A DNA stretch of 64,000 bases from positions 7,684-71,683 of the forward strand of contig JALOTP010000004.1 of NCBI GenBank assembly GCA_025457865.1, in the 5' to 3' direction. The notes under the pieces were generated by a model, which was not told where the DNA came from, ran no database searches, and saw only the letters and a list, made by a program, of their open reading frames with translations. How positions within the stretch are numbered: position 1 is the first letter of the stretch; each line of letters starts with the position of its first letter. This stretch comes from Thermoplasmatota archaeon (GTDB lineage: Archaea; Thermoplasmatota; Penumbrarchaeia; Penumbrarchaeales; Penumbrarchaeaceae). Shown in pieces: positions 42,926 to 59,972 of the stretch. Position numbers and translations under genes: made by a program.

Positions 42926-44701
42926 TCAACGCATGGAGGTGAGCTCCCTGCGGACCTCTTCCCTGATGGAATCGAAGGTCCGCTTGTAGTCCTTGTTGAC
43001 CACCCTTGCCATCCTCGAGATGGAGATCCTGCACCTAGCCTGTCTGAGCCTGTCCACTGAAACTCCCCTTGCGACGGCCTGCTGGCAGAGGTCCCCGAAC
43101 TCGAGCATTATTGTGAGCATGTCGAACTGCTTGTCCTGGGGGCAGAACGAGTCCACAGCATGGAATGCGTTCTGCTGAAGGAAGTCCTCCCTGAGCATCC
43201 TAGTGGTCTCCAGGACCATCTGCTGCGACGGGGGCAGGGCATCTGGACCGACCAGCTGGATGATCTCCTGCAGCTCCGATTCCTGCTGGAGCAGCGCCAT
43301 CGCCTTGTTCCGCCTGTCGAGCCATTCTGGCGACACTTTGTTCCTATACCATTCCTCCACCTTTTCCAGGTAGAGGGAGTAGGATTTCAACCAGTTTATG
43401 GATGGGAAGTGCCTCTTATCCGCCAGGTTGGAATCCAGGGCCCAGAACACCTTGACTATACGGAGCGTGTTCTGGGTGACGGGTTCCGAGAAATCACCTC
43501 CAGGTGGGGATACGGCGCCTATGACCGAGATGGAACCCTTCCTTGTACCTGTGGAAACGCATTCCACGACCCCTGCCCTCTCATAGAAGTTCGCGAGCCT
43601 GCTTGCGAGATAGGCAGGATAACCCTCTTCACCGGGCATCTCCTCCAGCCTGCCAGATATCTCCCTCAATGCCTCAGCCCACCTCGATGTGGAATCGGCC
43701 ATCAGGGCAACGTCGTAGCCCATGTCCCTGTAATATTCGGCCAGGGTGATACCAGTATAGATCGAGGCCTCCCTGGCGGCGACCGGCATGTTGGAAGTGT
43801 TGGCTATGAGGACCGTCCTTGACATGAGAGGCTCCCCTGTCCTCGGGTCCTCCAGATGCGGGAACTCCCTCAGGACATCGGTCATCTCGTTACCCCTCTC
43901 GCCACACCCGATATAGACGATTATGTCGGCATCGCTCCACTTTGCGAGCTGGTGCTGTGTCACTGTCTTTCCTGTCCCGAAACCGCCCGGGATGGCCGCT
44001 GTTCCACCCTTTGCTATAGGGAAGAAGGTATCCAGGATCCTCTGGCCGGTTATCAACGGCACATCGGGGTCGTACTTGACCTTGAACGGCCGGCCTATCC
44101 TTACCGGCCATTTCTGGAGCATGGACAGGCGTCTGGTCCCGTTAGTGGTCCTGATCTCGCAGATGACCTCGTCGATGGTCCTCTCGCTCTCCGGCACCAC
44201 CATGGTCACTATACCCTCCTCACCAGGAGGGACCAGGACCCTGTGCTTGACGGTCGGCGTTTCCTGGACCCAGCCTATGACATCACCGCCGCCTATGTGG
44301 GCCCCTGCTTCGATATCGGGATGGAAGGTCCATCTACGGGCGTGGTCAAGGGGCGGGACCCTTATCCCCCTGGCAATGAAATCACCGCTCTTCTCCATGA
44401 TGGCCTTCAGAGGTCTCTGGATGCCGTCATAGATCATGGACATGAGCCCAGGAGCGAGTTCGACGGAGAGCGGTTCCCCAAGCATAACGACCGTCTCCCC
44501 GGGTGTGATGCCCGCGGTCTCCTCGTAGACCTGGATGGTCGCCGAGTCACCTTCCAGCCCTATGATCTCCCCTATCAGCGCGGAACTGCCGACACTGACC
44601 ACGTCGTACATCTTGGCCCCCCTCATTCCGATGGCCTTGACGACGGGTCCGGCTATCATCTCTATCTTTCCATGTCCAAGTTCGTGCCCTTCAAACCCCA
44701 T
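42926..44701 (-). CDS. atpA: A-type ATP synthase catalytic subunit A
   Basis: P-loop [11 protein letters not shown], plus ...[15 protein letters not shown]...[30 protein letters not shown]... The length of 591 aa indicates no intein. Confidence 0.95.
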
Positions 44702-44770
44702 TCAAAGACCCCCCTCTAACGATAGTGACCTCGCTTGAGGCCCTCAGATGATCGTGATATCGTCCCTCCA

Positions 44771-45106
44771 TCAGGACCGCCCCCCCTTGACAGTTCCATG
44801 GTCTAGGCCCACAGCCCTTCTCATCATCTCCCTGGTCCGCCTGTCCTCCTCTTCACCGGGGAGTACGACCACAACGGGGGTGACCCGTCCAGAGGCCCTC
44901 TTCTCTAGCAGTTCCGCCGAAAGTTGCTCTGCGGCCTGGGAAGATAGCACCATGACCCCCATTCCGGACCTGTTCATGGTCCGGAACCAATCCCTCAGCC
45001 TTGGGGCATCATCTCCCTTGGTCCAGGTCATGACATCCCCAACCCCGGCGAGCTTGAGCCCAAGGGCCGACGAAGCATCAACGGCAGCGCAGATGTTACC
45101 CTTCAA
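44771..45106 (-). CDS. atpF: A-type ATP synthase subunit F
   Basis: ICAAVDASSALGLKLAGVGDV...VVVVLPGE pattern. The start is reassigned to TTG 45106, which has GGAGGA 6 nt upstream and forms a TTGA overlap with the atpC stop. Confidence 0.8.
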   Translation of the reverse strand: MKGNICAAVDASSALGLKLAGVGDVMTWTKGDDAPRLRDWFRTMNRSGMGVMVLSSQAAEQLSAELLEKRASGRVTPVVVVLPGEEEDRRTREMMRRAVGLDHGTVKGGRS

Positions 45107-46209
45107 GGCAGGTCCTCCATTATCAGCATGGACCTGGTCCTCTCCTCTCTCCACAGCCCGAACTTTGAGACATAGAGGGTCCTTAGGTTCTTGAGCTCCA
45201 GCTCCCTGGCTATCAGGAACCTGATGGTCGGGCCGACAGTGGACCAGTATCTCTGTGCCAGCGACCCCGAGGAGGAGAGAAGCATCCTGTCAAGCGCCAT
45301 CTCGATGTCCGGCCCTTTCCTCGGGTCTGTGAGGTCCTTGAAGAAAGGCTCAATGTAGGAGCCAGAGAGCAGGGAGACCGCCTCTTTCCTGGTACTGGCC
45401 TCCGCCATGGTCTCAAGGAGGGGTCTGCCCAGAAACCCAGTGTCGGGCAGCAGCTTCTCCAGGGTCCTCTCCCTGTCAAGACCCGTGGCCAAGGACCTTA
45501 GGATGATATTGAGGTTGTAACGGTCGCATAGGACCCTGTGGAGCTCTGAGACCCCCTTCCGTCCGCTCCCGGAGAGCCCAATGGGAGAGGAGAACGCATC
45601 AAGGGAGAACTTATCCAGAGCAGAATCGACTGCCGGCAGGTCGATATCCCCCCCTTTCAGTTCGGGCGAGACATATGAGTAGCTAGGGTGCACTTCCAGG
45701 ACCTCCAGGAAATTGGCCAGGTCCTTGCTGGCAAGGAGATGCCTTTCGAGCTCTTCCGTCAGCAGGCCGACCGGGTTCAGAGGTTCGTTTCCCTTTCCGA
45801 CCCTCCTTATCAGCCGCTTGAGCTCCTCGGATTCGTACCTTCTGATGAAAGGGACAAGGACAGGTCTTGCGGCCTTGGGGGTCTCCCTGGTGAGGTTCTC
45901 CAAAAAGGCATGGAACGATGAGGTCAGGTCCCTGTCCATCTCCCTTAGGGTAGTGGAGCTTGGCTGCACCGTAAGGTCCCCTTGGACCAATTTGGATAGG
46001 GCCTCGGGGGTCGGTGCTTCGATCAGTGGCTGCAGCTCATCCTTGGCAAGCAACGGGTTCCCTATGGTCGTAAGCCTTGAATTGTGGAACGAGAACTGTC
46101 CGTGCCTGATCAGCCATCTGAGACCGAATATCGTACCACCTGCGACCGATGCGATACCGGCCGCCCCAAGGGCGGCGGTCGTTCCCATGGACATGGCCAC
46201 TTCGAGCAA
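45103..46209 (-). CDS. atpC: A-type ATP synthase subunit C (V-type d homologue)
   Basis: The position between E and F, the ~360-aa all-helical sequence, and the C-terminal ...LARELELKNLRTLYVSK are typical of the AtpC/Vma6 family. Confidence 0.85.
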   Translation of the reverse strand: MLEVAMSMGTTAALGAAGIASVAGGTIFGLRWLIRHGQFSFHNSRLTTIGNPLLAKDELQPLIEAPTPEALSKLVQGDLTVQPSSTTLREMDRDLTSSFHAFLENLTRETPKAARPVLVPFIRRYESEELKRLIRRVGKGNEPLNPVGLLTEELERHLLASKDLANFLEVLEVHPSYSYVSPELKGGDIDLPAVDSALDKFSLDAFSSPIGLSGSGRKGVSELHRVLCDRYNLNIILRSLATGLDRERTLEKLLPDTGFLGRPLLETMAEASTRKEAVSLLSGSYIEPFFKDLTDPRKGPDIEMALDRMLLSSSGSLAQRYWSTVGPTIRFLIARELELKNLRTLYVSKFGLWREERTRSMLIMEDLP

Positions 46210-46221
46210 GCTCTTTGCACC

Positions 46222-46845
46222 TCATTCCTCGAAAAGGGTCCTCGATATCACTTCCCTTATGGATTCCTCGTTCTTTTCCAGGATGCCCTGGAAGGTCATG
46301 TCCATGACCCGGGCCCCATCCAATGAGACCGAAATGAAACCTCCAATGAGGTCGCGGCCATGGAACCTCCTCAGCAGGGGGGGAAGCTCGCTCGCTCCCA
46401 CGATGGTGGTCCCCACCGTTCCCCTGCCGGTGAGCGCACTAGCATCCATTCCCCTGACAGGGTAGATGGTCATGTTCCTGCCAAGGACCTTGTTGGCTGC
46501 ATCAAGGAGGGGTACGAGCCTACGCGCAAGCTCCTCCCCCTCAATGCCTCTTAGCCTGTTCCTGAGCGCTGACATCGTCTCCCAAATGAGCTCCTCCTTG
46601 GCACTGAGGATCACATTCCTTGAACGCCTTCTTCCCTCGGAGATGTACATGTTCCATAAAGCTCTCTTCTCCTTGGCGAGCTTGATCTCCATATCATCCA
46701 TGGTTGCCTTAAGCTCCCTGGTGGAGGCCTCTTTCATCTTGGCTATCTGCACCCTGGCATCGGTCATGTACCTCTCCGATTCCAGGTTCGCCTCCTCCTG
46801 TATCCTCTTCACTATGTCCGGCAAGCTCATCTGAACCACCTCCAA
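46222..46845 (-). CDS. atpE: A-type ATP synthase subunit E (peripheral stalk)
   Basis: N-terminal long helix (IVKRIQEEANLESERYMTDARVQIAKMKEAS...) and a C-terminal globular part. It sits between K and C. Confidence 0.8.
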   Translation of the reverse strand: MEVVQMSLPDIVKRIQEEANLESERYMTDARVQIAKMKEASTRELKATMDDMEIKLAKEKRALWNMYISEGRRRSRNVILSAKEELIWETMSALRNRLRGIEGEELARRLVPLLDAANKVLGRNMTIYPVRGMDASALTGRGTVGTTIVGASELPPLLRRFHGRDLIGGFISVSLDGARVMDMTFQGILEKNEESIREVISRTLFEE

Positions 46846-46851
46846 AACGTT

Positions 46852-47586
46852 CTATAGCATACCGGACGCGAGCAGAAGGAAGATGGCCACAAGCACGCCG
46901 AAGATGGCCATGGTCTCTGACATGACCGCATAGATAACACCCTTGCCGAAGACCGAATTGTTACGCCCGAACGCGGCACCGGCTGATTCCGCAGTTATCC
47001 CCTGAGCGATAGCGGAAACGCTGGATAGGGCAATGACGATACCTATGGCAAGTGCGCCCCAACCCACATAGGGGCTCTTGAGAACGGCAATTTCAGGACC
47101 CGCCAATCCTGTGAAGTTGAGCATGAGGATTGCAAGGAGCAATCCGTAGATGCCCTGGGTCATAGGGATGGCCTGGTAGATAATGAGCCTTCCGAACTTG
47201 TCAGGTCTCTCGGCGGTCACTCCAGCTGCGCCGGCTCCCACTATCCCTATCCCTATGGAAGATGAGATGGCAGCTATACCCATGCAAAGCGCCACTCCGA
47301 TGAAGACCAATGCCCTGTTGTCCCTGACGACCTTTGAATCGGTCTCATCGTTGGGGTTGTCATAATGATGGAATTCCTCTATGTTCGTGGAACCGTCGTT
47401 GTCAAGGTCCCCGTTCGCATCATTGGTCGTGTTGTCAAGACCGTTGGCCCCTTCCCAGTCATCGTCCATTCCGTCGAAGTCCAGGTCCCGTTTTGGTTCC
47501 CGGACGGCATCGGCATTTGCTCCTGTTAGCAGCAGCAAGGCGTTCAGACCAGCTATCAAGGGTACGATCCAAGCTTTTCCGTTCAT
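46852..47586 (-). CDS. atpK: A-type ATP synthase proteolipid subunit K/c. It has a duplicated (4-TM) hairpin core, preceded by a signal peptide and an acidic domain with two EF-type loops.
   Basis: - Core: GIAAISSSIGIGIVGAGAAGVTAERPDKFGRLIIYQAIPMTQGIYGLL... and ...ALSSVSAIAQGITAESAGAAFGRNNSVFGKGVIYAVMSETMAIFGVLVAIFLLL.
- N-terminus: MNGKAWIVPLIAGLNALLLLTGANA, then DLDFDGMDDDWE ... DLDNDGSTNIEE.
- GGAGG lies 8 nt upstream of ATG 47586. The track start at 47622 is a TTG. Confidence 0.85.
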   Translation of the reverse strand: MNGKAWIVPLIAGLNALLLLTGANADAVREPKRDLDFDGMDDDWEGANGLDNTTNDANGDLDNDGSTNIEEFHHYDNPNDETDSKVVRDNRALVFIGVALCMGIAAISSSIGIGIVGAGAAGVTAERPDKFGRLIIYQAIPMTQGIYGLLLAILMLNFTGLAGPEIAVLKSPYVGWGALAIGIVIALSSVSAIAQGITAESAGAAFGRNNSVFGKGVIYAVMSETMAIFGVLVAIFLLLASGML

Positions 47587-47677
47587 CGGCCATTCCTCCG
47601 GTCGTTCTTTAGATTTATCCAATTCGGTTCGGATGAGATGCAGGGCCCTCTATGGAGCTCATGTGGAGAACAGACGG

Positions 47678-49708
47678 TCAAACGCAGTCAACCTCCTTAA
47701 GGCATTCCGGGTCCGATACCTTTGTTAGGACCCTTTCCCGGCCGAAGGGTGTGAAGAGAGTCCCCCCCCCGGAATAGAACTTGCCGAAGAACTCCACGTA
47801 CTGTAACCTGAGGCTGTGGACGAACCCGCCCAGTATCTGGATGAGGAAATTGAATATATGAAGGAAGACGAGCAGGACCACGGCCACAGGGATGAGCAAA
47901 CTGCCAAGGTCCATGACCATCTCTGCTATGATGTTGAAGGCCATAGCAAGTCCGAAGGTGGAAAGTCCTAGCGCTAGGATCCTTGTGTAGGAGATCACAT
48001 CGCCGAGAAGGCCTTCCATGGAGAAGAACACCATCCCCTTCACCTCAATTATTAAAAGGACCGTCCCTGTCAGGAAGGTGACGAGAGCAATTATGGACAG
48101 CATCCCGTCCATCTCCCATGCTTTGAGCAGGAAGTCACCGATGAAGATGATGGCCCCGGTCTGGACCAGGAACCAGGAGATCGTCCCCTTGACGAACCCG
48201 AAGACGCTCCCGTTTTTCACCCTGTCCGCGCCAAGGAGGACGAAGCCAAGATTGAGCTGGAGGAGACCTATGACCATGGACATCATGAACAGGAACATGG
48301 GGTCCCTCAATGAATCGTATGGCAATTGGTATCCGAGAACGGTCAGGGCATATAATGGCCTGGTCGGGTCCCCATAGATGAGCCTCGGGACAAGGTCACC
48401 GAAGAAAGCGCCCATCCACAGGCCTGCTAGAATGCTGGAAATGCCCAGAATGGTCACAAGGTACCCAATGTCCCGCATGGACCTGCTCCTCCTGACCTTG
48501 AGGATGATGAAGAGGCCGGCAAGGGCGAACATGAGACCATAGCCGATATCGCCCAGCATCAGACCGAATATGATGATGAAGGGTACAGATATCCATGAGC
48601 TGGGATCTATCTCGTTGTACCTGGGAGCGGCAAAGGTCACGGCAAGTGGCTCGAAGAGCCTTCCCAGGAAACGGTTCTTCATCTTGATGGGGACCTTGTC
48701 CTCGCCCGTCTCAGAACTGGTAGGGGCCCTTGCAGTTATATGGAAGACGCCCCCTGTGGCAGACCCCACAAGGTCATTGAGCTCCTTTAGCCTATCCTTC
48801 TCCGCCCAGCCCGTTATGACATTAGTGTATCGGGTTGACCTAAGAGAGATAGCCACCTTCTCCCGCTCTAGGTCCAATTCTAGCTGCTCCCTGCTGCTCC
48901 TAGCCCTTGGCAGGAGCTTAAGGGAGAGGTTTGAGGCCTCTTTGGACAGGTGTGCCTTCTTCGCCAATAAGCTTTGGCTGAGGTCCTCGAGCTTTGATAG
49001 GACCTTAGGTACAGGGTAGGAGAGCAGGTCATCACCCATCTTGTTCCTTTCGGAAAGGGCCTTCATCCGATCGGTATTTATCGTTAGCTCCGAGAAGAGC
49101 TTCCCCTTCAAATGCTCCTCGAGAGGTCCTGCAGATGACCGGGGATAGATTATGCGGACGGCATGTAGCCCTTCCTTTCGGTCCAGAAGGGACCCTATGA
49201 TGTCACCACTTGCGTTCTGGACCGCTCGATCGAGCTCATCATACCTCCTGGTCAGGCCAACTTTGACCCTGACCATCGAGAGATGGCCAAGACCTGAGAG
49301 GACCAGGTCCAGTCCAGATAGCGGCCTCAACCTATCGGTCAGGTCCCTGCTAGCTTCCAGCTCATCATCCAGCGATCCCATGGACGAGCGGAGTGGATGG
49401 AGCGACCTCTCGGCCCCGGCAAGCCACCCCTTGAGGTCGTGATAGAAAACCCTAGATACCTCCATGGGCTCGGGTCCGTTGAGGGCGGCCGAAAGCCCTT
49501 TTACCGAAGGTTCGAAAGGCTCCAGGAAAGATATCATATCATCGATCCTGGACCTAAGGATGGTCAGTTCCTTGTTCGACATGGGCTCCCTTGCGGTCTG
49601 ATCGGCAATGACCTGAACGAGCCTGGACGTCTGCAGTTTGGATAGTACCTTCTGAAGGTCCTTCTTTAAGAGGTATATGTCAACTTTGACCATTCTCTCT
49701 GGATACAA
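47678..49708 (-). CDS. atpI: A-type ATP synthase subunit I (a-subunit: stator/ion channel)
   Basis: A soluble ~330-aa coiled N-domain is followed by a polytopic C-domain containing the conserved ...SYTRILALGLS... Arg-bearing helix. Confidence 0.9.
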   Translation of the reverse strand: MYPERMVKVDIYLLKKDLQKVLSKLQTSRLVQVIADQTAREPMSNKELTILRSRIDDMISFLEPFEPSVKGLSAALNGPEPMEVSRVFYHDLKGWLAGAERSLHPLRSSMGSLDDELEASRDLTDRLRPLSGLDLVLSGLGHLSMVRVKVGLTRRYDELDRAVQNASGDIIGSLLDRKEGLHAVRIIYPRSSAGPLEEHLKGKLFSELTINTDRMKALSERNKMGDDLLSYPVPKVLSKLEDLSQSLLAKKAHLSKEASNLSLKLLPRARSSREQLELDLEREKVAISLRSTRYTNVITGWAEKDRLKELNDLVGSATGGVFHITARAPTSSETGEDKVPIKMKNRFLGRLFEPLAVTFAAPRYNEIDPSSWISVPFIIIFGLMLGDIGYGLMFALAGLFIILKVRRSRSMRDIGYLVTILGISSILAGLWMGAFFGDLVPRLIYGDPTRPLYALTVLGYQLPYDSLRDPMFLFMMSMVIGLLQLNLGFVLLGADRVKNGSVFGFVKGTISWFLVQTGAIIFIGDFLLKAWEMDGMLSIIALVTFLTGTVLLIIEVKGMVFFSMEGLLGDVISYTRILALGLSTFGLAMAFNIIAEMVMDLGSLLIPVAVVLLVFLHIFNFLIQILGGFVHSLRLQYVEFFGKFYSGGGTLFTPFGRERVLTKVSDPECLKEVDCV

Positions 49709-49739
49709 GGTATTGCACCTTCGTTACCTGTTGGAAGTC

Positions 49740-50051
49740 CTATCCGAAGACCACGTCCAATGCCCTTTCGACCGCTGGTCCTATCCTGGACCTTGCCCTT
49801 CCGCTCAGACCCTTTGCTATCTCAGCACCATCGTTCCTGATCTTTGCCGCCTCAGCGCCCGCAGCCGTCCTTGCAGATCCCATTTCCGAGACGGACCTTG
49901 CACGGATCTGTTCAAGTGCCCTTTCCCTGCTGCTCTCTAGGTCCGATGAGGCATCCTTCACGGCCCTCTCAGCCCTCTCTTTCCATAGGGCCATCGTCCG
50001 TTGGGCGTCCTTCTCGGCCTCCAGGAGCCTATCGAAATCGTCTCTGCTCAT
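49740..50051 (-). CDS. atpH: A-type ATP synthase subunit H (peripheral stalk)
   Basis: A 103-aa all-helical charged protein (LLEAEKDAQRTMALWKERAERAVKDA...). It is the first gene of the operon, upstream of atpI. Confidence 0.7.
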   Translation of the reverse strand: MSRDDFDRLLEAEKDAQRTMALWKERAERAVKDASSDLESSRERALEQIRARSVSEMGSARTAAGAEAAKIRNDGAEIAKGLSGRARSRIGPAVERALDVVFG

Positions 50052-50337
50052 TCGAACACACCGACCAGCGGCATAACCGGTTGGACCTAATATTTCTTCA
50101 TACTTAACACTTGTTCCTACTATCCTGCATGCCTATGTATCCAACGGTGAGAAAAAAAGATTAAAAAGAACTAAAATGGTGTAAATAATCGTTAAAATGT
50201 AACATGGATGTCACTACGGTTACATCGCAAGGGACAGAGCGTCCATGATTATTAAAAAAGGATATTAGGAAGGAAATTTTAAAAGAGCGTTCCTGGATTG
50301 GGTAGAAGGATATCGTAGAAAAGGAGGCCTGTAAGGC

Positions 50338-53043
50338 TTGAGCGTTGAGGGCCAGGTAGCAGACGCCAACAGACAGAAGCTAGAGATGGTCATCCAGAAG
50401 GGTGACCAGATAATCTCTATGCTGGAGAAGCAGGGGATCAATACGGATGAGTGCCGCCTGAGGATGAAGGAGGCCAAGGACCATTTCTCATCCGGTGACC
50501 TGGGGGGGGCCTACAAGCTCGCCCAGCATTGCATAGGGGACCTGATGAAGCTCAAGGAAAGGGCAGGGCCAGAAAGAAAGGATGACAAGGGGTCGGTCCA
50601 GAAGAAGGGAAAAGGGGTATTTGCCCTGATAAGGGACAACAACGTAGAGATCCTTAAAAAGGTCGAGGAATGGAAGATCATCGTCAAGGGGTGGAGGGAC
50701 AAGGGTTATGACTTCGAAAAGGATGAGAGCCTGTTCACCAGGGAGTTCGAAGAGATAGAGAAGAGGTTCATTTCCATAGGGGAACAGATAGAGAGGGCGG
50801 AATCCATCAGAGCACAGCTGAACAGGGTCAGGGGTGAGTACTCCGAGATAGGATCTGTCCACAGGAACAAGCTCATCGAGATAGAGGCCTCCGTTTTCAA
50901 GTTGGACAGGCTCGATGACCTGGACCGTCGGGTCAGGGGGGTGAACCAGACCTTCAAGGTCCTGAAAGAGCGTTACACCAATCTCCGCAATAGGCTGGGG
51001 AGGTACGGAAGGAGCGGTCTTAAGACAAGGTTCCTCGAGGAGATACTCGAGAACGACGAGGATGTGGATTACATAGAGAGGCAGTTCAATCTGTTCGATT
51101 CCAACCTCGAGTACCTGTTGAAGGAAAAGCAGAAGCTGCAGACCTTCAGGGAGGAGGCTGTCATAGATGACTTCAAGGACCGGATCGCGGAGATAGAGAT
51201 GGTGATGGACGATCCTATGATGCTCGATCGGGTCGTCGAGAAGATGATAGCACTCGAGAAGCTCATCCGGTCGGAGAAGGACAATCAGAAGAGAAGGGAT
51301 GAAGAGCGGAAGAGGCGGCTGGAGATAAGGAAGAGCCTGGACAAATACTCCTCCGAAGGGTTCAAGGTCACGACGGTGGAGCAGCTGCTAGATGAGAACA
51401 TGAACCTGCTGGAGGAGGAGTTCGATATCTTCATCAGACAGGTCGCTAGGCTCAAGTCCCTGAAGGAGAAGCTGTTCAAGATGGATGCCACTGGGTTCGA
51501 GGAGGAGGTCTCCAAGCTCTCCGATAAGCTCAACGACCCCGAGAACCTGGACCAGGTCGAAAAAGAGCTCGATGAGCTCAAGGACAGCATCCTGAGCCAG
51601 AGGATGAGGTTGCAGAAACTGGAGAACGCCCTGAAGGAATGGAGCGGTATGGGCTTCAAAGTGACCAAGCTCGAAATGGCGCTGAAGAAGGATATCGCCG
51701 AGGCCGAAAAGGTCTATACCGATTACAAGGCCAGGATAGAGGAATTGAGCGATTACCAGACAAAGCTGCAGGACATGGGCCACAAGGATATTGCTGACCA
51801 GGTCCACAAGATCACGATGATGATAAAGAACCCGGAGCTTTTAGACACGGTAAGGAAGGAGATGGCCCGGGTCCAGAAGACGGTAACTGATATTGAGACG
51901 ATAAAGGCGAAGCGCAAGGAGCTCAACGAGCTCCTCAAGGTATGGAAGACCCAAGGTTACAGGATAGACCGGATCCTCGAGCTGATGAGAGAGGAGAGCA
52001 CATATTCAGGGCTCGAGGAGATAGTCCTTCACTATACAAGGTCGATAGCTGCCCTGGAATCCTTCAGGGCGGAACTCGTGGTCGAAGAGCGGGGTTGGTT
52101 CCCCCAGACCGAATCCTTCATAAGGGAGAACATGAACGACCCCGATCGGTCCCAAGAGATACTTCAGAGGTTCGATGAGCTGAAGGAGCTCAATAAGAAG
52201 GAGGAGAAGAGGCGGGGGGAGATACAGAGGAAGCTCAAGGAGCTGGAGTCGCGTGGGATAGATATCTCCAGGATAGAGCCGCTTCTGATGGGCGACTCCC
52301 AGTACCTCACGACCGAGTACGAGGTCTTCAAGGAGAACGTCAAAAGGCTCCTAAAGCTCAAGGCGACGTTGCTGAAGGACGCTCACAGGAGGTCTGACCA
52401 GGACCTGGAGATGCATGCCAAGTCCATGAACGACCCCTATTCAATAGATGTTTACGAGCAGGTGCAGGACGGAGGCAAGAAGCAGGCCACAGGGACCCAG
52501 CAAGCCGCTGCCACCTCGACTCCTGTGAGCCAAGGACAACCTGATCAGTTGAACCCAGCCCAGAGCGTGGACCAGATCAAGGAAGCCGCAAAGCGTTTGT
52601 TCAGGGAGAACAATTACGAGGAAGCTTTGAAGCTCTTCGAGCTGGTGCTCGATGTCGATCCGAACCAAAAAGAAAGCCTCTTCTACAGAAAGAAGATAAT
52701 GGCAAAGATAAGGCTACCATCGGTCGCACCCGTCGCAGGACAGGAAGGCCCGTCATTGGTGGCTCCAGGCATCTCGGAGGCATCAGGTCCCGATGCAAAG
52801 GAAGATGGGCCTCAAGCTAGGACAGAAGTAGGCAAGAACACGAAACTGGAAGGAAAGACACCGAACCCCCACTGCCTCTCCTGCAAGGGCTCCGGGAGCT
52901 GCATCTGGTGCCAGGGTTCGGGAAAATGCTCGACCTGCAATGGGGTAGGACTTTCCTTCGGCTCCACCTGCACGACATGCAAGGGCTCCGGGAGCTGTTC
53001 CGTATGCAAGGGGACAGGGGTATGCAGCTGGTGCATATCCTGA
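50338..53043 (+). CDS. 901-aa cytoplasmic repeat protein: about six ~100-aa coiled-coil modules, a TPR-like segment, a low-complexity linker and a C-terminal DnaJ-type CxxCxGxG zinc-finger array
   Basis: - TTG start with GGAGG 10 nt upstream.
- Recurring module motifs: (N/D)(D/N)P..(L)D.V.KE(L/M), then W...G(F/Y).(V/I)..LE. Examples are KLNDPENLDQVEKEL...WSGMGFKVTKLEMAL and MIKNPELLDTVRKEM...WKTQGYRIDRILELM.
- TPR-like segment: AAKRLFRENNYEEALKLFELVLDVDPNQKESLFYRKK.
- C-terminus: CLSCKGSGSCIWCQGSGKCSTCNGVG...CTTCKGSGSCSVCKGTGVCSWC.
- No TM helix and no signal peptide. Confidence 0.6.
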   Translation: MSVEGQVADANRQKLEMVIQKGDQIISMLEKQGINTDECRLRMKEAKDHFSSGDLGGAYKLAQHCIGDLMKLKERAGPERKDDKGSVQKKGKGVFALIRDNNVEILKKVEEWKIIVKGWRDKGYDFEKDESLFTREFEEIEKRFISIGEQIERAESIRAQLNRVRGEYSEIGSVHRNKLIEIEASVFKLDRLDDLDRRVRGVNQTFKVLKERYTNLRNRLGRYGRSGLKTRFLEEILENDEDVDYIERQFNLFDSNLEYLLKEKQKLQTFREEAVIDDFKDRIAEIEMVMDDPMMLDRVVEKMIALEKLIRSEKDNQKRRDEERKRRLEIRKSLDKYSSEGFKVTTVEQLLDENMNLLEEEFDIFIRQVARLKSLKEKLFKMDATGFEEEVSKLSDKLNDPENLDQVEKELDELKDSILSQRMRLQKLENALKEWSGMGFKVTKLEMALKKDIAEAEKVYTDYKARIEELSDYQTKLQDMGHKDIADQVHKITMMIKNPELLDTVRKEMARVQKTVTDIETIKAKRKELNELLKVWKTQGYRIDRILELMREESTYSGLEEIVLHYTRSIAALESFRAELVVEERGWFPQTESFIRENMNDPDRSQEILQRFDELKELNKKEEKRRGEIQRKLKELESRGIDISRIEPLLMGDSQYLTTEYEVFKENVKRLLKLKATLLKDAHRRSDQDLEMHAKSMNDPYSIDVYEQVQDGGKKQATGTQQAAATSTPVSQGQPDQLNPAQSVDQIKEAAKRLFRENNYEEALKLFELVLDVDPNQKESLFYRKKIMAKIRLPSVAPVAGQEGPSLVAPGISEASGPDAKEDGPQARTEVGKNTKLEGKTPNPHCLSCKGSGSCIWCQGSGKCSTCNGVGLSFGSTCTTCKGSGSCSVCKGTGVCSWCIS

Positions 53044-53075
53044 AATGAACAAGGATGAAAAAAGAGGTGTAAATC

Positions 53076-54932
53076 ATGTTCGATCTGAAGATAGCGTTCC
53101 TGCTGTTATTACCATTGGTGATGTCAACGTTCGTTGCAGGACAGTGCTGCGATGTCCCTCCGATACATATTCTGAGCAATGAGATGGTCCTAATTTCGAC
53201 CAAAGAGGTCTGGACAACGGATGTGTTCGTCAACGGTACCCTGGTCGTGGACGACGAGCTCATGATAACGGGCGCGGAAGTGGTCATGGGGGGAGCTGGG
53301 ATCAGTGTGACCGAGAACGGCACGCTCATTCTGACGGATTCGAGGGTATCACCCCACCCCAACAACACCGGGTTCTACCTGGAGAACAGGGGAAGGCTGG
53401 AGCTGAATGGAGCGGTGCTTGAGGGATGTTCCGACCCTGGCAATTCGCTCATAGGATTATATCTGGTATCAAGCTCGCTCATCATGGACGATTCGATGAT
53501 GATCTCATCCGGGCTCATCCATTGCCAGAGCAGCTCGGTCAGGATAAGGGACAGCAGCATCTCCGGTCTGGTATCGTCCGAGAGCGATTGCACCCTTAAG
53601 GGAGGCAATGTCACCTCCATGGGGCTCACCCAGTACGGGAAGGGCAAGATGGAAGTGATGGATGTCGATGTCACCTCCTCCATATCGTTCTCCTCGCCAA
53701 TATCCGCCATCTCTTCGCTGGATGGAGGGGAGTTGGTCCTGGAGGACGTCAGGATAGAGGGGTCATATGATGGTGGCATCTATGCAAGGAACGGGGTGCT
53801 TTCCGTTTCGAGGGTGTCCATCTCTCTTCAGGACGGCCTTTACGGGCTCAGGTCGGAGAACACCTCCGTCGTGCTGCTTGATGAGATGGAGATAGATGGG
53901 ACCCTCGAGGGAATGACCCTCCTTGGAACTGATTCCGATGTCGTGGCCAGGAACTGCATCGTCCATGCCAATTACACAGGGCTTCTGTACGGGGGCATGG
54001 GAACGTTGACGGCATACACAAGCAAGTTCCAAGGGTCCACATATGGGGCCATAGTCAAAGGCCCAACGATCCTTGAGCGCATCATCTTCGAGGACAATCT
54101 GATAGGCATCATGGCTGAAGAAGGTTCCCTCAAGAAGGTGGAGAGATGCATTTTCACGGACTTTGAAAAATGGGGGATAGAGGAGGAGGCATGGAGCATT
54201 AGGATATGGCCAGACAACAGCTTCGAGCCGGGGCAGGAGGCCAAGGGAACCTATGCTTGGTGGGGAAGGGTCAACGTCTCTGCCAGGTCCGAGGAAGGGT
54301 TCGAGGTTGAAGGGGCTGAGCTTAAGCTTGGGACGATGGGGGAAGTACCGGTCCGCATATCAGCCGGCGAGGTCGGAATGGTCTGGGGCTACTCGAATGA
54401 TGGGGATACTGTCGCCGCTCCACTTATCAATGTATCCGCAAGGTGGGGTACGTCATCTGCGTTCAGGACCGCCCGACCCATGGAAATGGTGGTCCATTCC
54501 CTTGTGCTCACCCTACGGCTCTCTGACATATCGGTCACCGATATCAGGATGATCGACCACACTCTGGAGGTGGACGTGGCCGTCCGTGGACCCGGGGTCA
54601 GGGACGTCCGTGCCACCATCTACGTCGATGGCTCCTACAGGACCTCCGAGCTCTTCGACCTTGGCCCCAACGGGACCGTTACCCTCTCGTTCACGCTTAG
54701 AGGATTGGATGGAGGGGAGCGAAATTTCACTGCGAGCGTTCTCTCTAGGGACGAGTACAGCGGGGCTGATGGGGCTTTGACGGCCAATAACGAGATGTCG
54801 ATCACGTTCATGGTCAAGGTGGACAAGGATAGTGACGTCCTGTACGTTCCGCTGGCACTTTGCATCATGTTCGTCTCCATTGCCTTTGTTGTTATCGTTG
54901 GTTATGTTAAAAAGAGCGGTCCTAAAGTTTAA
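53076..54932 (+). CDS. Secreted right-handed beta-helix (PbH1-like) protein with a C-terminal membrane anchor
   Basis: Signal peptide ([18 protein letters not shown]), repetitive beta-helix turns rich in G/S/N/V, and a C-terminal TM helix ([23 protein letters not shown]) followed by KKSGPKV. Confidence 0.6.
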
Positions 54933-54957
54933 TAGGGTCCTTTGCTTCCCAAAGACC

Positions 54958-56346
54958 ATGGCCATTGCATCGTCCAAGGACATCGAGTACATGACCGTAT
55001 CCGAGGTCTCGGGCCCTCTAATGGTGGTCGAAGGGATAGAGGGCGCATCCTACGGCGAGGTCGTCAGGATAAGGTCTCCGGACGGAAGGATGAGGCTGGG
55101 GCAGGTGCTCGAAGCCCATACCAACAAGGCCATAGTCCAGGTCTTCGAGGGAACCAAGGGCTTGGACACGAAGGCTACCTCGGTCAGGTTCACCGGGGAG
55201 ACCATGAAGATACCGGTGACCATAGAGATGCTCGGCAGGGTCTTCTCAGGGACGGGAAGACCCATAGACGACGGACCGGGACTGATACCTGATGAGCGGC
55301 GTGACATAAACGGGGAGCCCATAAACCCGACGGCAAGGGAGTACCCCAAGGAGTTCATCCAGACCGGTATCTCGACCATTGACGGCATGAACACCCTTGT
55401 AAGGGGTCAGAAGCTCCCTATATTCTCAGCCTCCGGTCTACCGCACAACGAGCTCGCCGCCCAGATAGCAAGGCAGGCGAAGGTGCTGGGCTCGAGCGAA
55501 GAGTTCGCTGTCGTCTTCTGCGCCATGGGGATAACGGCCGAAGAGGCCAATTTCTTCAAGAGGTCCTTCGAGAGGTCCGGGGCACTGGAGCGAACGGTCC
55601 TCTTCCTGAACCTCGCAGATGACCCGACCATAGAACGGATAATAATCCCCAGGATGGCCTTGACGACAGCGGAGTACCTTGCATTCAAGAAGGGCATGCA
55701 TATACTTGTCATCCTGACGGACATGACCAACTACTGCGAGGCCCTCCGTGAGATAGCGGCGGCCAGGGAAGAGGTCCCGGGAAGGAGGGGCTACCCCGGA
55801 TACATGTACACCGACCTGGCCCAGATATACGAGAGGGCGGGAAGGATAATCAACAACAAGGGCTCCATCACCCAGATCCCCATCCTGACGATGCCGGATG
55901 ACGATATCACCCACCCCATACCGGACCTGACTGGCTACATCACTGAAGGGCAGATCGTGCTATCAAGGGACCTCCACAGGAAAGCGATAAGGCCGCCGGT
56001 CGACCCCCTGCCATGCCTATCAAGGTTGATGAAGCAGGGCATAGGCAAGGGCAGGACAAGGGAGGATCACGACCAGGTCTCCAACCAGCTCTACGCAGGA
56101 TATGCCGAAGGCGTGAACCTGAGGGACCTGGTTGCAGTCGTGGGCGAGGAGGCTCTGACCGATAGGGACAGGTCCTACCTTCACTTCTCCGAGCTGTTCG
56201 AGAAGCAGTTCATCAACCAGGGCCCGGAGGAGGACCGGACCATACAGGATACCCTTACGCTCGCTTGGAAGCTCCTCAGGACGGTTCCCAAAGAGGAGCT
56301 GAAAAGGATAGATGAGGCCAATATACAGAAGTACTATCCCGCCTGA
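54958..56346 (+). CDS. atpB: A-type ATP synthase subunit B (non-catalytic/regulatory)
   Basis: [26 protein letters not shown]...[25 protein letters not shown]...[22 protein letters not shown]... I trimmed the start to ATG 54958. The track ORF begins inside the upstream gene. Confidence 0.95.
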
Positions 56347-57295: not shown

Positions 57296-59917
57296 TCAGC
57301 TTATGATCTCACCCTTTCTCCCGCACTCGGGACAGACGATGTTCTCGAGGGCCCCCTTCTTCATCGCATCCTTGTCCACATGTTCTTTGAATATCCCACC
57401 GCAGAACGGGCATTCCAGGGTCACCTTGATCATTTCCCTACCTCGTGGTGGAGATGGTGGTGGGGTGGGCTCCAATACCAATGGGATCGCCCTGGTGGAA
57501 GCCATCTTTGCTTCTGCCCGGGGGGGAGGTGAAGGTCTTGCAAGGGGGGTCTTCGGAACAGGTTTGGGTCTGACAGGGAGCGTCGAGGGTACCTTGGCAG
57601 GTCTTTTTGCGGGTACCAGGTCCAGGACCCTTTGTCGGTCGGGCACTTTACCAACCTTGCCTGTCGGTCCCGGAAGAGGTCTGGAGGCATCTTTAGGTCC
57701 CACGATCTCTATACCGGCCTCCTTGAGCCTTTCCCTGAGCCGGTACATCCTACTTTTCCTCAGGAGTATCAGGATGATGACTATCAAGAACACGATCAGG
57801 AGGAGCGGCAGGAGGCATATCAGGAACTGCGCAAGGTCCCCGGTCTGTATCAGGTCCCCATCCTCCGGTAGGACATCTATGGTGATGGACACGTTCGAAG
57901 AGGCTCCCTTGCTGTCTGTCACGGTCAATCTGACGATCAGACCTGTCCCTTCGGAAGCGCTCCTCCATCTGGTCCTGGCACCCCTGTCCGAACTCCCGTC
58001 GGGAAATTTCCATAGAAAAGTGAGATGGTCGTTGTCAGGGTCGGAGGACCTGGAACCATCGAAGATGAAATCCTCCCCAAGACGCCTTTGCGTCCCGTAC
58101 TGTGAGTCTATGATGGCGACAGGGGGTCGGTTCTGGGTGGTCAAGGCCGGGGTGAAGCTGATGGTATTTACGTTCCTGTCCTCGTTACCGGTAAGGTCAA
58201 CAGCTGTCACAGCCGCCCAATGCAAGACCTTGGGATCAAGCCCGGTCAATAGCGCGCTCGTTTCATAGGACGGGACCTCGAGCTGGGGGTCCAGACCATC
58301 GAGCCCGCCGAAGGTGCCAGTGCCTGCATAGACCCTGTAAAGCATCAGATCATCGGCCTCCGAAGGGTCCCAAGAAAAGGATACCCTGCCATCGCCCGTT
58401 ACGCTGAACTCGAGTCCCGAGACCTGTGGTGGTGGGGTGGTATCATTTTGAGCTGCCTCACCCCATAACAGAATATCGTCCAGGAACAGTCCGCCACCCT
58501 TTCCGTCCTTCCCAGATGTCAATGAGACCCTGAGCTTCGTTCTGCCTTCCGTTAACCCCTCCAGGGCAAAGACCGTCTCTTTCCAATCATATGGCCCGGT
58601 GAAGCCCCTCTTTCCGGCCAGTGGGCCTGTATTTGCGCCTAGTTCATCATATGCCGTATCGTCCCCAATGGGTGCTATCAGGACCCAATCCAGGCCATCC
58701 TCCATAAGCTCGAGCACAGCCCCGCAGGTTGAGGCCGGTCCAGAGCTTTCCAGGGCATGGTGGATGGAAAGGAAGGCGGTCCCGAGCCCCGCCAGGTCGA
58801 GCCAGTCAGACTCGACCGTCGTGAGGCATATTCCGCTGAATCCCTCAGTGGAGGAGGTCCCGCTCCCTGCCTTAAGGACCTGACCGCGGGAAAGCGACAG
58901 ACAACCCGTTACGGAATTCGGGGAGGACCAGGAGGCATTGCCCTGTTCGGTCCGTAAGGTGTAGGGCCCCGTCCCTTTGGCCATGTCATCATAGGTCAGG
59001 GCATCGACGGCGTAAGCGATGAAATACTCCTCAGAGCCCTCGGTCCCCGCTCCCAGGAGTACGATCTCCACCCAGAATTGGCCCACCTCATCAGGGGTCC
59101 AGCGGATGGTGTTCTCTCCAAGCATGGAAGGTGTCACCGTCATCGTCCTGTCCAGCAGGACCCGTTCACCGGTAGTGGAGATCATTATCCGGACACTTGC
59201 CTCCCCTATCCTATCCAGGGGTCCCCCTGCAAGGAAGAAGGAAAAATATGCGGTGTCGAAAGCGCTCAGATAGGTAGGATATGCGCTTTGTCTCGAGAAA
59301 TGGACCGGTACAGGACCGCTTGCGGCCCCATAGAGCACTATGTCATCCAGAACGACACCTCTTCCCTGGAGGCCGTCAGGAAGGTCTGTCAGATGGAACC
59401 TGATAGTGAGGGCCCCCCCGATATGGTCCTCAAGGGAGATGTTGAGCTCTTCCCATACCCCTTCAGAGCTGCCACTAAGCTCTTGAAGGACGTGCCAATC
59501 CTCCTCAGGTGTTCTAGTCATGACCTTGAGACCGTCATGCCCGAGCGTCTGTCCAGATGAGGACAGGTCGTACCAGATATGGAAGGAGATATGGAGCGAT
59601 GAGAGCAGTGTGGTATCCATCTCGGGCAGTTCCAGATAGGCATCGGTCCCGTTGGGATAGGTGCCGTTGAGAGGGGCTCCCCATGCCCCGCCCATCGCAC
59701 TCCCCGGCCAAGGTTCCTCCGGATTTCCCTCACCGGGGACCCCCCATTCCCAGGGGTCGTTCGTCCCGCCATGGACGAAACCCCCATCGTCGGTATCAAG
59801 ATCGAACCTGACCGTCTGTTCGAACCCCTCGGCCGAACAGAGGAGGTCACCATGAGGTATGGCAAGGACCGTGATGAGAAGGAGGACGGATGGAAGCAAT
59901 GCTCTGTGAATGTTCAT
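57296..59917 (-). CDS. Surface protein with FN3-like and PKD domains, a TM anchor, and a long Pro/Lys-rich cytoplasmic tail ending in a zinc ribbon
   Basis: - Signal peptide: MNIHRALLPSVLLLITVLAI.
- FN3-like block: PPPQVSGLEFSVTGDGRVSFSWDPSEADDLMLYRVYAG.
- PKD block: NRPPVAIIDSQYG...FDGSRSSDPDNDHLTFLWKFPDGS...LTVTDSKGASS.
- TM helix FLICLLPLLLIVFLIVIILILL.
- The tail ends ...TLECPFCGGIF...IVCPECGRKGEIIS. Confidence 0.7.
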   Translation of the reverse strand: MNIHRALLPSVLLLITVLAIPHGDLLCSAEGFEQTVRFDLDTDDGGFVHGGTNDPWEWGVPGEGNPEEPWPGSAMGGAWGAPLNGTYPNGTDAYLELPEMDTTLLSSLHISFHIWYDLSSSGQTLGHDGLKVMTRTPEEDWHVLQELSGSSEGVWEELNISLEDHIGGALTIRFHLTDLPDGLQGRGVVLDDIVLYGAASGPVPVHFSRQSAYPTYLSAFDTAYFSFFLAGGPLDRIGEASVRIMISTTGERVLLDRTMTVTPSMLGENTIRWTPDEVGQFWVEIVLLGAGTEGSEEYFIAYAVDALTYDDMAKGTGPYTLRTEQGNASWSSPNSVTGCLSLSRGQVLKAGSGTSSTEGFSGICLTTVESDWLDLAGLGTAFLSIHHALESSGPASTCGAVLELMEDGLDWVLIAPIGDDTAYDELGANTGPLAGKRGFTGPYDWKETVFALEGLTEGRTKLRVSLTSGKDGKGGGLFLDDILLWGEAAQNDTTPPPQVSGLEFSVTGDGRVSFSWDPSEADDLMLYRVYAGTGTFGGLDGLDPQLEVPSYETSALLTGLDPKVLHWAAVTAVDLTGNEDRNVNTISFTPALTTQNRPPVAIIDSQYGTQRRLGEDFIFDGSRSSDPDNDHLTFLWKFPDGSSDRGARTRWRSASEGTGLIVRLTVTDSKGASSNVSITIDVLPEDGDLIQTGDLAQFLICLLPLLLIVFLIVIILILLRKSRMYRLRERLKEAGIEIVGPKDASRPLPGPTGKVGKVPDRQRVLDLVPAKRPAKVPSTLPVRPKPVPKTPLARPSPPPRAEAKMASTRAIPLVLEPTPPPSPPRGREMIKVTLECPFCGGIFKEHVDKDAMKKGALENIVCPECGRKGEIIS

Positions 59918-59972
59918 ACTATCTTTCAGGCTCCTTGGGTCGGGATGGGTGGAGTAGGCCTTCAAGGTTTTT

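Follow-up and report, generated by a model that had tools for sequence, protein, structure and literature searches.

What does a long helical-repeat protein do when its gene separates the two halves of the A-type ATP synthase locus of an archaeon? The question is raised by the window analysed here, the whole 64,000-nucleotide (nt) stretch of DNA from a Thermoplasmatota archaeon, in which the gene of a protein of 901 amino acids (aa), referred to below as the scaffold, lies between atpB and a divergent operon beginning with atpH. Analysis of the protein, its paralogues and its neighbourhood suggests that it may well be a non-enzymatic docking scaffold from a family of proteins that work with P-loop ATPases, most likely a second partner of ParA. 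The gene and the parts of its product are the following (ORF, open reading frame; HMM, hidden Markov model; TPR, tetratricopeptide repeat; pLDDT, predicted local distance difference test).

50338..53043, plus strand: gene of the 901-aa helical-repeat scaffold (ORF list; 32 full-length homologues of 40-88% identity; all-helical by AlphaFold2)
50338..50565, plus strand: N-terminal three-helix domain, residues 1-76 (helices 9-31, 37-51 and 55-76; pLDDT 83-90)
50599..50637, plus strand: peptide QKKGKGVFALIRD, residues 88-100, a candidate motif of ParA-binding type (conservation 0.97; disordered linker)
50638..52473, plus strand: six tandem helical modules of ~100 aa, residues ~101-712 (self-alignment, module HMM, landmarks)
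52561..52713, plus strand: single TPR hairpin with a capping helix, residues 742-792 (a disordered linker on either side)
52867..53040, plus strand: Cys12 tail, five CxxCxGxG units plus CxxC, residues 844-901 (12 invariant Cys; pLDDT ~50)

An initial annotation made from the window had described about six modules of ~100 aa, and our analysis agrees with it. Comparison of an alignment of 24 orthologues (A1) with itself by hhalign reveals off-diagonal matches at offsets of ~106, 218, 316 and 417 residues, with E-values from 7.5e-18 to 3e-5. As an independent test, a module HMM constructed from 23 modules, all of them from paralogues in other families, was applied to the scaffold and detects six modules, at residues 116-167 (partial), 223-325, 335-429, 432-528, 534-632 and 634-705. 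Its total score is 210.5 bits (E 1.5e-67), whereas the best of 500 shuffled sequences reaches 8.6 bits; the self-comparison and the shuffling control together give the repeats statistical support. Landmarks of the form [W/Y/L]xxxG[F/Y/L/I] are present at residues 119, 223, 337, 435, 536 and 636, and the module consensus reads IEEWKEEGYNVDRLEELLDEDLEEAEKEFEEFEKRIEKLKELEEELEKLDTSGFEEEVEEIRKLLKDPDKISEIEEEIQALEKKIE (in short form WxxEGYxVxxLE ... LDxxGFExEV ... L.DP). Both motifs that had been singled out earlier are conserved turns of the module, but the spacing of ~25 residues then given between them is wrong, as the D/N-P cap lies 35-45 residues before W...G(F/Y). Conservation of the single modules among orthologues is 0.63-0.73, while identity between modules is only ~20%. 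The six modules are thus conserved individually and position by position, which points to specific surfaces and argues against a passive rod.

The AlphaFold2 model computed from A1 is an all-helical chain with a mean pLDDT of 79, rising to 85-93 in the modules, and a predicted template modelling score (pTM) of 0.33; residues 77-93, 713-741 and 793-840 are disordered. A fragment of two and a half modules (residues 274-540) reaches a pLDDT of 88 and a pTM of 0.56. Within each module, a helix of 37-47 residues leads through a tight G(F/Y) turn to a short helix; then come a helix of 27 residues, the GFE loop, a helix of 10-14 residues and the D/N-P cap. Inside the N-terminal domain there is a turn, LEKQGINT, which resembles half a module, and the linker behind this domain carries an invariant basic and aliphatic peptide, KKGKGVFALIRD. 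The TPR part is formed by helices 744-756, 760-773 and 778-791 and is one hairpin, not an array; here the family profile matches designed TPR proteins among the PDB sequences (E 4.9e-7, its sole PDB match), and the TPR_1 model gives 16.6 bits on the single scaffold sequence, below its cut-off of 27.8. The cysteine units span residues 846-899 (nt 52873-53034), with all 12 cysteines invariant in 24/24 orthologues, and probably form three Zn(Cys)4 sites. The TPR hairpin and the cysteine units had both been recognized earlier, but the order of the C-terminal parts has to be corrected to modules, linker, TPR hairpin, second linker and Cys tail. No hydrophobic stretch is found in the protein (maximum KD19 0.63), in keeping with the earlier statement that it lacks a transmembrane (TM) helix and a signal peptide.

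No described family accounts for this architecture. Pfam and NCBIfam searches with the whole scaffold return nothing above threshold, only sub-threshold TPR and spurious coiled-coil matches; no catalytic family is matched in Pfam, NCBIfam or the PDB sequence search, and no ATP-synthase family in Pfam or NCBIfam. The view of the initial annotation that the module architecture does not belong to a described family therefore stands, with no family recognized in Pfam, NCBIfam, PDB sequences or Foldseek, and its picture of a cytoplasmic, non-enzymatic repeat scaffold is supported. Spectrin-type repeats are three-helix units of ~106 aa, and the module resembles them in its similar period, its all-helical unit with a conserved Trp and its tandem arrays. 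However, the helix pattern of the module is long, short, 27-residue and 12-residue, and a spectrin-like fold was rejected because Foldseek searches of the PDB, run for the full model and for fragment 274-540 (267 residues), returned nothing below E 1; the best query-normalized TM-score is 0.30, for the fragment against PRC1 (E 4). Some sources label relatives of the scaffold as SMC or 'chromosome segregation ATPase', an assignment that we reject since TIGR02168 scores 16 bits compared with a cut-off of 567 and the protein has no ATPase domain. Kinship with the stalk subunits of the ATP synthase was also rejected, as hhalign against subunits E and H gave a probability below 1%.

Occurrence of the module in other proteins is more informative. 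A profile search of 1.84 billion representative proteins yields 1272 matches at E <= 1e-3 and, at E <= 1e-10, 249 representative clusters, which are mostly from Thermoplasmatota. Three clusters among the matches are scaffold orthologues and the rest are module arrays of up to 3143 aa; further matches are small proteins carrying the cassette of TPR and Cys tail. KaiC-like ATPases have been proposed as signalling hubs, and the module is found fused to KaiC or in a protein with KaiC encoded 4 nt away. It is also fused to DUF835, listed as an inactivated KaiC (iKaiC; PMC5847659), to a Bac_DnaA ATPase domain with a double zinc ribbon and, in three genomes of two other families, to ParA, where ParA and two modules form one ORF. 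In the archaeal KaiC-like, DUF835 and DnaA-type proteins examined, the helical part is the same ~100-aa module, but the 901-aa scaffold differs from them in having no ATPase domain of its own.

Some details of these relatives may be recorded here. The ParA fusions (L088 1-2292, minus strand; L090 382-2280, minus strand; L091 1468-3513, plus strand) are of Soj type with Walker A at residues 21-25. The five DnaA-fused proteins (L036 8024-12295, plus strand; L037 5859-9866, minus strand; P0041, P0044 and P0047) are archaeal, ~1250-1420 aa in length, and contain a small N-terminal domain, 7-8 modules and a bacterial DnaA-type AAA+ domain (E ~1e-70); a sub-threshold match to the Hda lid is seen in 2/5, the double zinc ribbon in 4/5 and a poly-Lys tail in one. 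Candidatus Wallbacteria HGW-Wallbacteria-1 encodes P0043 (3143 aa) and P0184 (2360 aa), with up to 15 module stretches (PKK89407.1, PKK88762.1), so that the module is not confined to archaea. The genome to which the window belongs encodes two module proteins besides the scaffold, namely P0193 and a protein of 933 aa. The latter (C6; L072 8924-11725, minus strand) has at least five modules and resembles the DnaA-fused proteins in its N-terminal domain, and its gene adjoins those of an RNB-domain RNase and of a 1953-aa PKD/beta-propeller surface protein.

P0193 provides the connection to ParA. Its gene (409 aa; contig C57, L073 1866-3095, minus strand) follows, with an overlap of 8 nt, a Soj-type ParA gene (L073 3088-3849, minus strand), whose product matches AAA_31 at 1.4e-67, contains KGGVGKTT and is the only ParA of this type in the genome. 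P0193 consists of an N-terminal MGKPALGKGMRDLIAKNFG, two modules, a Pro-rich linker and a TPR hairpin. The pair of genes, together with the N-terminal motif G[KR]G[MIL][KR][DE]L[IL], is conserved in 11 genomes, which belong to f1, the family of the window with its seven genera, and to the sister family f2, the motif reading GRGLKELL in f2, and a ParB_N domain was not found in the window's genome, which is 89% complete. In profile alignments, residues 29-409 of P0193 match residues 321-791 of the scaffold with E 5e-20, the terminal TPR hairpin included, and residues 8-283 match residues 91-416 with E 6.7e-12, starting exactly at GKGMRDLI in the former and GKGVFALI in the latter. By these alignments, the scaffold is the order-specific long paralogue of P0193. 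Since this closest relative appears to be a stand-in for ParB beside ParA, a scaffold recruited by an ATPase is more likely than a part of the ATP synthase or a chaperone of DnaJ type.

The scaffold peptide at which the second alignment starts, GKGVFALIRD, has the highest conservation in the protein, compared with 0.32 for the preceding linker, where pLDDT remains below 50 up to residue 93. In Myxococcus xanthus, the ParA-binding peptide of ParB has its key positions at L11, R13, L15, L18 and I19, and the peptide alone stimulates ParA (PMC12462528). P0193 (L-G-K-G-M-R-D-L-I) agrees at 5/5 of these positions and the scaffold (K-G-K-G-V-F-A-L-I) at 4/5, although the pattern by itself is not rare in the genome. 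Likeness to the N-terminal peptide of ParB (residues 11-19 in M. xanthus) lies in the aliphatic residues around a central Lys/Arg within a region predicted to be largely unstructured and, for P0193, in the full set of key positions and in the place of its gene directly after that of a Soj-type ParA. Unlike ParB, the scaffold has neither the ParB/Srx CTPase domain nor a helix-turn-helix, and shows no sign of DNA binding; its peptide does not stand at the N-terminus and has a basic residue at the first hydrophobic position. A phmmer search of the short peptides against the PDB was uninformative owing to their shortness.

Non-ParB partners of this kind have been described. PomX and PomY of M. xanthus and McdB are helical or disordered scaffolds which activate ATPases of ParA/MinD type (PMC7993993, PMC13170346, PMC12139897). 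They resemble the scaffold in being long, non-enzymatic and largely helical; they carry a short ATPase-activating peptide, of which the scaffold peptide is a candidate counterpart, and more than one such partner can serve a single ParA-type ATPase. No sequence or fold relationship with them was found, however, and only the scaffold family has the module, the TPR hairpin and the Cys12 tail. Two more proteins of the window's genome (C76:13764-15278 and C107:22304-23533, both minus strand) begin with LGRGLKALI or IGRGIEALI, followed by a helical part, a long Pro-rich linker and C-terminal TPRs, and on this pattern they may be further partners of ParA. Upstream of the C107 gene are two others, one for a response regulator and one for a protein of 1134 aa.

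Several observations weigh against ParA as the partner of the scaffold. The peptide is internal (residues 88-100), behind a folded domain of 76 residues, and where the ParB motif has its first hydrophobic residue, the orthologues have K, R, A or P. A loose form of the motif has 10 matches in the genome where ~6 are expected by chance. The scaffold gene is located beside the atp genes on C97 and is not adjacent to parA, which is on C57. ParA is present in both families that have the scaffold, f1 and f2 (it is missing in just 4/24 f1 assemblies, two of which are 62-68% complete), which favours the pairing, but it is also present in f8 and f9, families without the scaffold, so that identical distributions of ParA and scaffold were rejected. 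Finally, a view that considers ParA alone does not explain why the gene keeps so strictly to the atp locus in two families.

This position was analysed with the following features of the window.

42926..50051, minus strand: divergent operon atpH-I-K-E-C-F-A (ORF list; Pfam families of the orthologous genes)
50272..50285, plus strand: ggaaattttaaaag, predicted BRE/TATA (transcription factor B recognition element and TATA box) element of the scaffold gene (~55 nt before the start codon)
50324..50328, plus strand: Shine-Dalgarno sequence GGAGG of the scaffold gene (by sequence, 9 nt before TTG)
53076..54932, plus strand: exported protein of 618 aa, a right-handed beta-helix anchored by a C-terminal TM helix (Pfam), likely the second gene of a bicistron
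54929..54934, plus strand: TATA-like hexamer TTAATA, predicted leaderless promoter of atpB (overlaps the beta-helix stop codon, 29 nt before the atpB ATG)
54958..56346, plus strand: atpB, subunit B of the A-type ATPase (ORF list; Pfam domains of orthologues)

All 32 full-length homologues of the scaffold come from metagenome-assembled genomes of Thermoplasmatota and are annotated as hypothetical. A scan of 401 genomes of the phylum finds the full-length protein in every f1 genome sampled except one 62%-complete assembly, which gives a weak partial match, and in f2 as a shorter version of 772-775 aa without the Cys tail; outside f1 and f2 it was not found in these 401 Thermoplasmatota genomes. 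Orthologues are thus restricted to one order, the lineage EX4484-6, for which the literature search returned nothing on a scaffold-atp locus. The gene order in every f1 locus with enough flank is atpI/atpH (minus strand), scaffold, beta-helix gene and atpB, and in both f2 genomes the scaffold directly precedes atpB without a beta-helix gene, so that homologues adjoin atp genes at every locus where the flank permits a judgement. At one locus (L053 590-3211), genes for a tyrosine-recombinase-like protein and an AAA ATPase lie between the scaffold and the usual site of atpH/atpI, probably as an integrated element, and because of this insertion atpH/atpI are missing upstream. Other families of the class have atpA and atpB adjacent on one strand and no scaffold gene, so that the divided operon and the gained scaffold gene together count as a derived character shared within the order. 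On this comparison of gene orders, the atp operon was split and the scaffold gene arrived in the ancestor of the order. Identity of atpB is 84-97% among f1 loci, 80-81% with f2 and 66-80% with other families of the class, not counting one fragmentary copy. The left flank, composed of unrelated genes, is equally conserved in f1, and part of the linkage between scaffold and atp genes may therefore be inertia; the genes 3' of atpB vary even within f1. The remaining subunit gene, atpD, is on another contig behind a TyrRS-like gene. The atpK gene (46852-47622, minus strand) encodes a 256-aa protein with a signal-like N-terminus and an acidic DxDxDG-type stretch before the proteolipid helices.

Signals for expression are consistent along these loci. 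The scaffold gene starts with TTG, with its Shine-Dalgarno sequence 9 nt upstream. Among the 25 loci examined the start codon is TTG in 19 and GTG in 6 and never ATG, and most have a GGAGG- or GGGGG-like stretch before it; this combination suggests selection for a modest translation rate, as far as such signals can be read. A GGAAAnnTTTAWA-like element, predicted from sequence, precedes the start by ~55 nt and keeps this distance across orthologous loci. The spacers are 32 nt between the scaffold and beta-helix genes and 25 nt between the latter and atpB. Upstream of the beta-helix gene, the 8-35 nt of the f1 loci mostly contain a Shine-Dalgarno-like G-rich stretch (GAGGTG in the window) and have no TATA element, and by these signals the scaffold and beta-helix genes look bicistronic. 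Before atpB, TT[TA]A[AT]A is found at -28 to -30 of the ATG in 12/13 non-redundant loci; no Shine-Dalgarno sequence is present in this spacer of the loci compared, and the rest of it is unconserved. The hexamer at this distance and the lack of a Shine-Dalgarno sequence lead to the prediction of a separate leaderless atpB mRNA. It appears that atpB probably has its own promoter, and the earlier proposal of one transcription unit with atpB is weakened and becomes doubtful. The scaffold gene would accordingly be read from its own promoter, with a weak TTG start and a strong Shine-Dalgarno sequence, on a transcript shared with the beta-helix gene, and atpB from its own leaderless promoter downstream. 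A search for RNA-seq runs returned just two wetland metagenomes, both of DNA.

The product of the second gene is an exported beta-helix protein with a C-terminal anchor, followed by atpB, as had been stated earlier. It matches Beta_helix (PF13229) with 1.4e-12 and 48 bits (cut-off 25.9) and NosD with 1.4e-5 and 25.1 bits (cut-off 23.6), and has a signal-like N-terminus, a TM helix at ~590-612 and 10 N-glycosylation sequons. Its orthologues share 26-68% identity, and in 16 of them the cytoplasmic tail consists of 3-8 basic, non-conserved residues, which makes binding of the scaffold to this tail unlikely. Further along the window (57296-59965, minus strand) is the gene of an 889-aa surface protein with a TM helix, behind which a long cytoplasmic tail rich in Pro and Lys extends to a terminal zinc ribbon, CPFC...CPEC.

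The neighbourhood invites two other explanations. The scaffold might be an accessory factor of the A-type ATP synthase, acting in assembly, tethering or regulation and binding subunit B or the A3B3 head; its lasting place beside atpB would then be accounted for. Such a role is in line with the location of all orthologues between atpH and atpB, at all loci with enough flank in seven f1 genera and in both f2 genomes, with the turnover of genes downstream of atpB even within f1, with the contiguous, scaffold-less atpA-atpB of families outside the order and with the company of oligomeric P-loop ATPases that the module keeps elsewhere. However, the link between scaffold and ATP synthase is positional only: atpB has a conserved promoter-like element of its own, a complete set of nine ATPase subunits (A-F, H, I, K) is encoded without the scaffold, the latter does not resemble stalk subunit E or H, and synteny of the left flank with unrelated genes is just as well conserved in f1. 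We therefore consider an accessory role doubtful, and of the earlier suggestion of a link to ATPase or envelope assembly, the constant neighbourhood of atp genes stands while the ATPase link goes no further than position. It is also conceivable, but unlikely, that the scaffold is the cytoplasmic partner of the beta-helix protein, its Cys tail or TPR holding this ectoprotein or the tails of other surface proteins. The close spacing of the two genes in all f1 loci, the presence of both the Cys tail and the beta-helix gene in f1 and their joint absence from f2, and surface proteins with zinc-ribbon tails nearby would fit this idea. It is opposed by the short, unconserved cytoplasmic tail of the beta-helix protein and by the f2 scaffold, which occurs without any beta-helix gene, and the co-gain of Cys tail and beta-helix gene amounts to a single evolutionary event. 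The pairing with an envelope protein that had been proposed earlier thus holds for the apparently coupled genes of f1, but it is not ancestral, as f2 lacks both the beta-helix gene and the Cys tail.

The protein itself suggests two more. The five CxxCxGxG units plus CxxC with their 12 invariant cysteines could be those of a DnaJ-like zinc-finger holdase or chaperone, whose tail would bind unfolded clients, and the DnaJ_CXXCXGXG model (PF00684) gives 20.9 bits for one small protein related to the tail cassette. In both proteins the units would pair into Zn(Cys)4 sites. However, the isolated scaffold tail scores 12.1 bits against a cut-off of 32.7, the tails of paralogues 9.7 and 7.9 bits, and the whole scaffold gives no PF00684 match at E <= 1 and no DnaJ or DnaJ_C match in Pfam or NCBIfam, nor is a DnaJ protein matched in the PDB. 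The scaffold has 5.5 contiguous units of 9 residues where DnaJ has four spaced ones, and it lacks the J domain, the G/F region and the C-terminal client-binding domain. Because of the sub-threshold score and the missing J domain, the likeness to the DnaJ zinc finger asserted in the initial annotation is one of motif only. The Cys tail is moreover missing in the orthologues of the sister family and is thus not part of the core function. A DnaJ-like chaperone role is unlikely, and identity as a DnaJ-like holdase appears highly improbable. At the other extreme, the scaffold could be a generic rod or spacer with no specific ATPase partner, its location being a frozen accident that dates from the inversion by which the atp operon was divided. 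No enzymatic or binding domain was identified, Foldseek gave no informative relatives, and unrelated neighbour genes are also syntenic within f1, all of which a mere spacer would accommodate. The conservation of the six modules and of the short peptide, position by position, among orthologues of 40-88% identity speaks against it, and we regard a spacer as improbable.

If the scaffold is a docking protein recruited by a P-loop ATPase, the exposed peptide would engage the ATPase dimer, most likely that of ParA, in the manner of the N-terminal peptide of ParB. The six conserved modules and the TPR/Cys end would then offer a multivalent platform for other partners. A far-reaching extension, which at present is quite unlikely and is put forward as speculation, is that the order runs a ParB-less system of ParA positioning, in which several TPR-tailed adaptors with a ParB-type peptide would serve one Soj-type ParA. 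Among these adaptors, the 901-aa scaffold, fixed at the atp locus and expressed together with a surface protein, would have the task of placing or partitioning a membrane machine along the ParA gradient, be it the A1AO ATP synthase or envelope complexes, and the module would represent a new fold class, a docking rod of oligomeric P-loop ATPases such as ParA, KaiC and those of DnaA type.

The scaffold thus belongs to a large, unannotated helical-repeat family, without a Pfam model and without a structural relative, whose members recur beside P-loop ATPases or fused to them. For the ATP synthase, the locus shows that the operon was split in this lineage, and its signals predict that atpB has a leaderless transcript of its own. 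For the family, the finding hints at a ParA system of archaea whose canonical ParA-binding peptide would be carried by a protein other than ParB.

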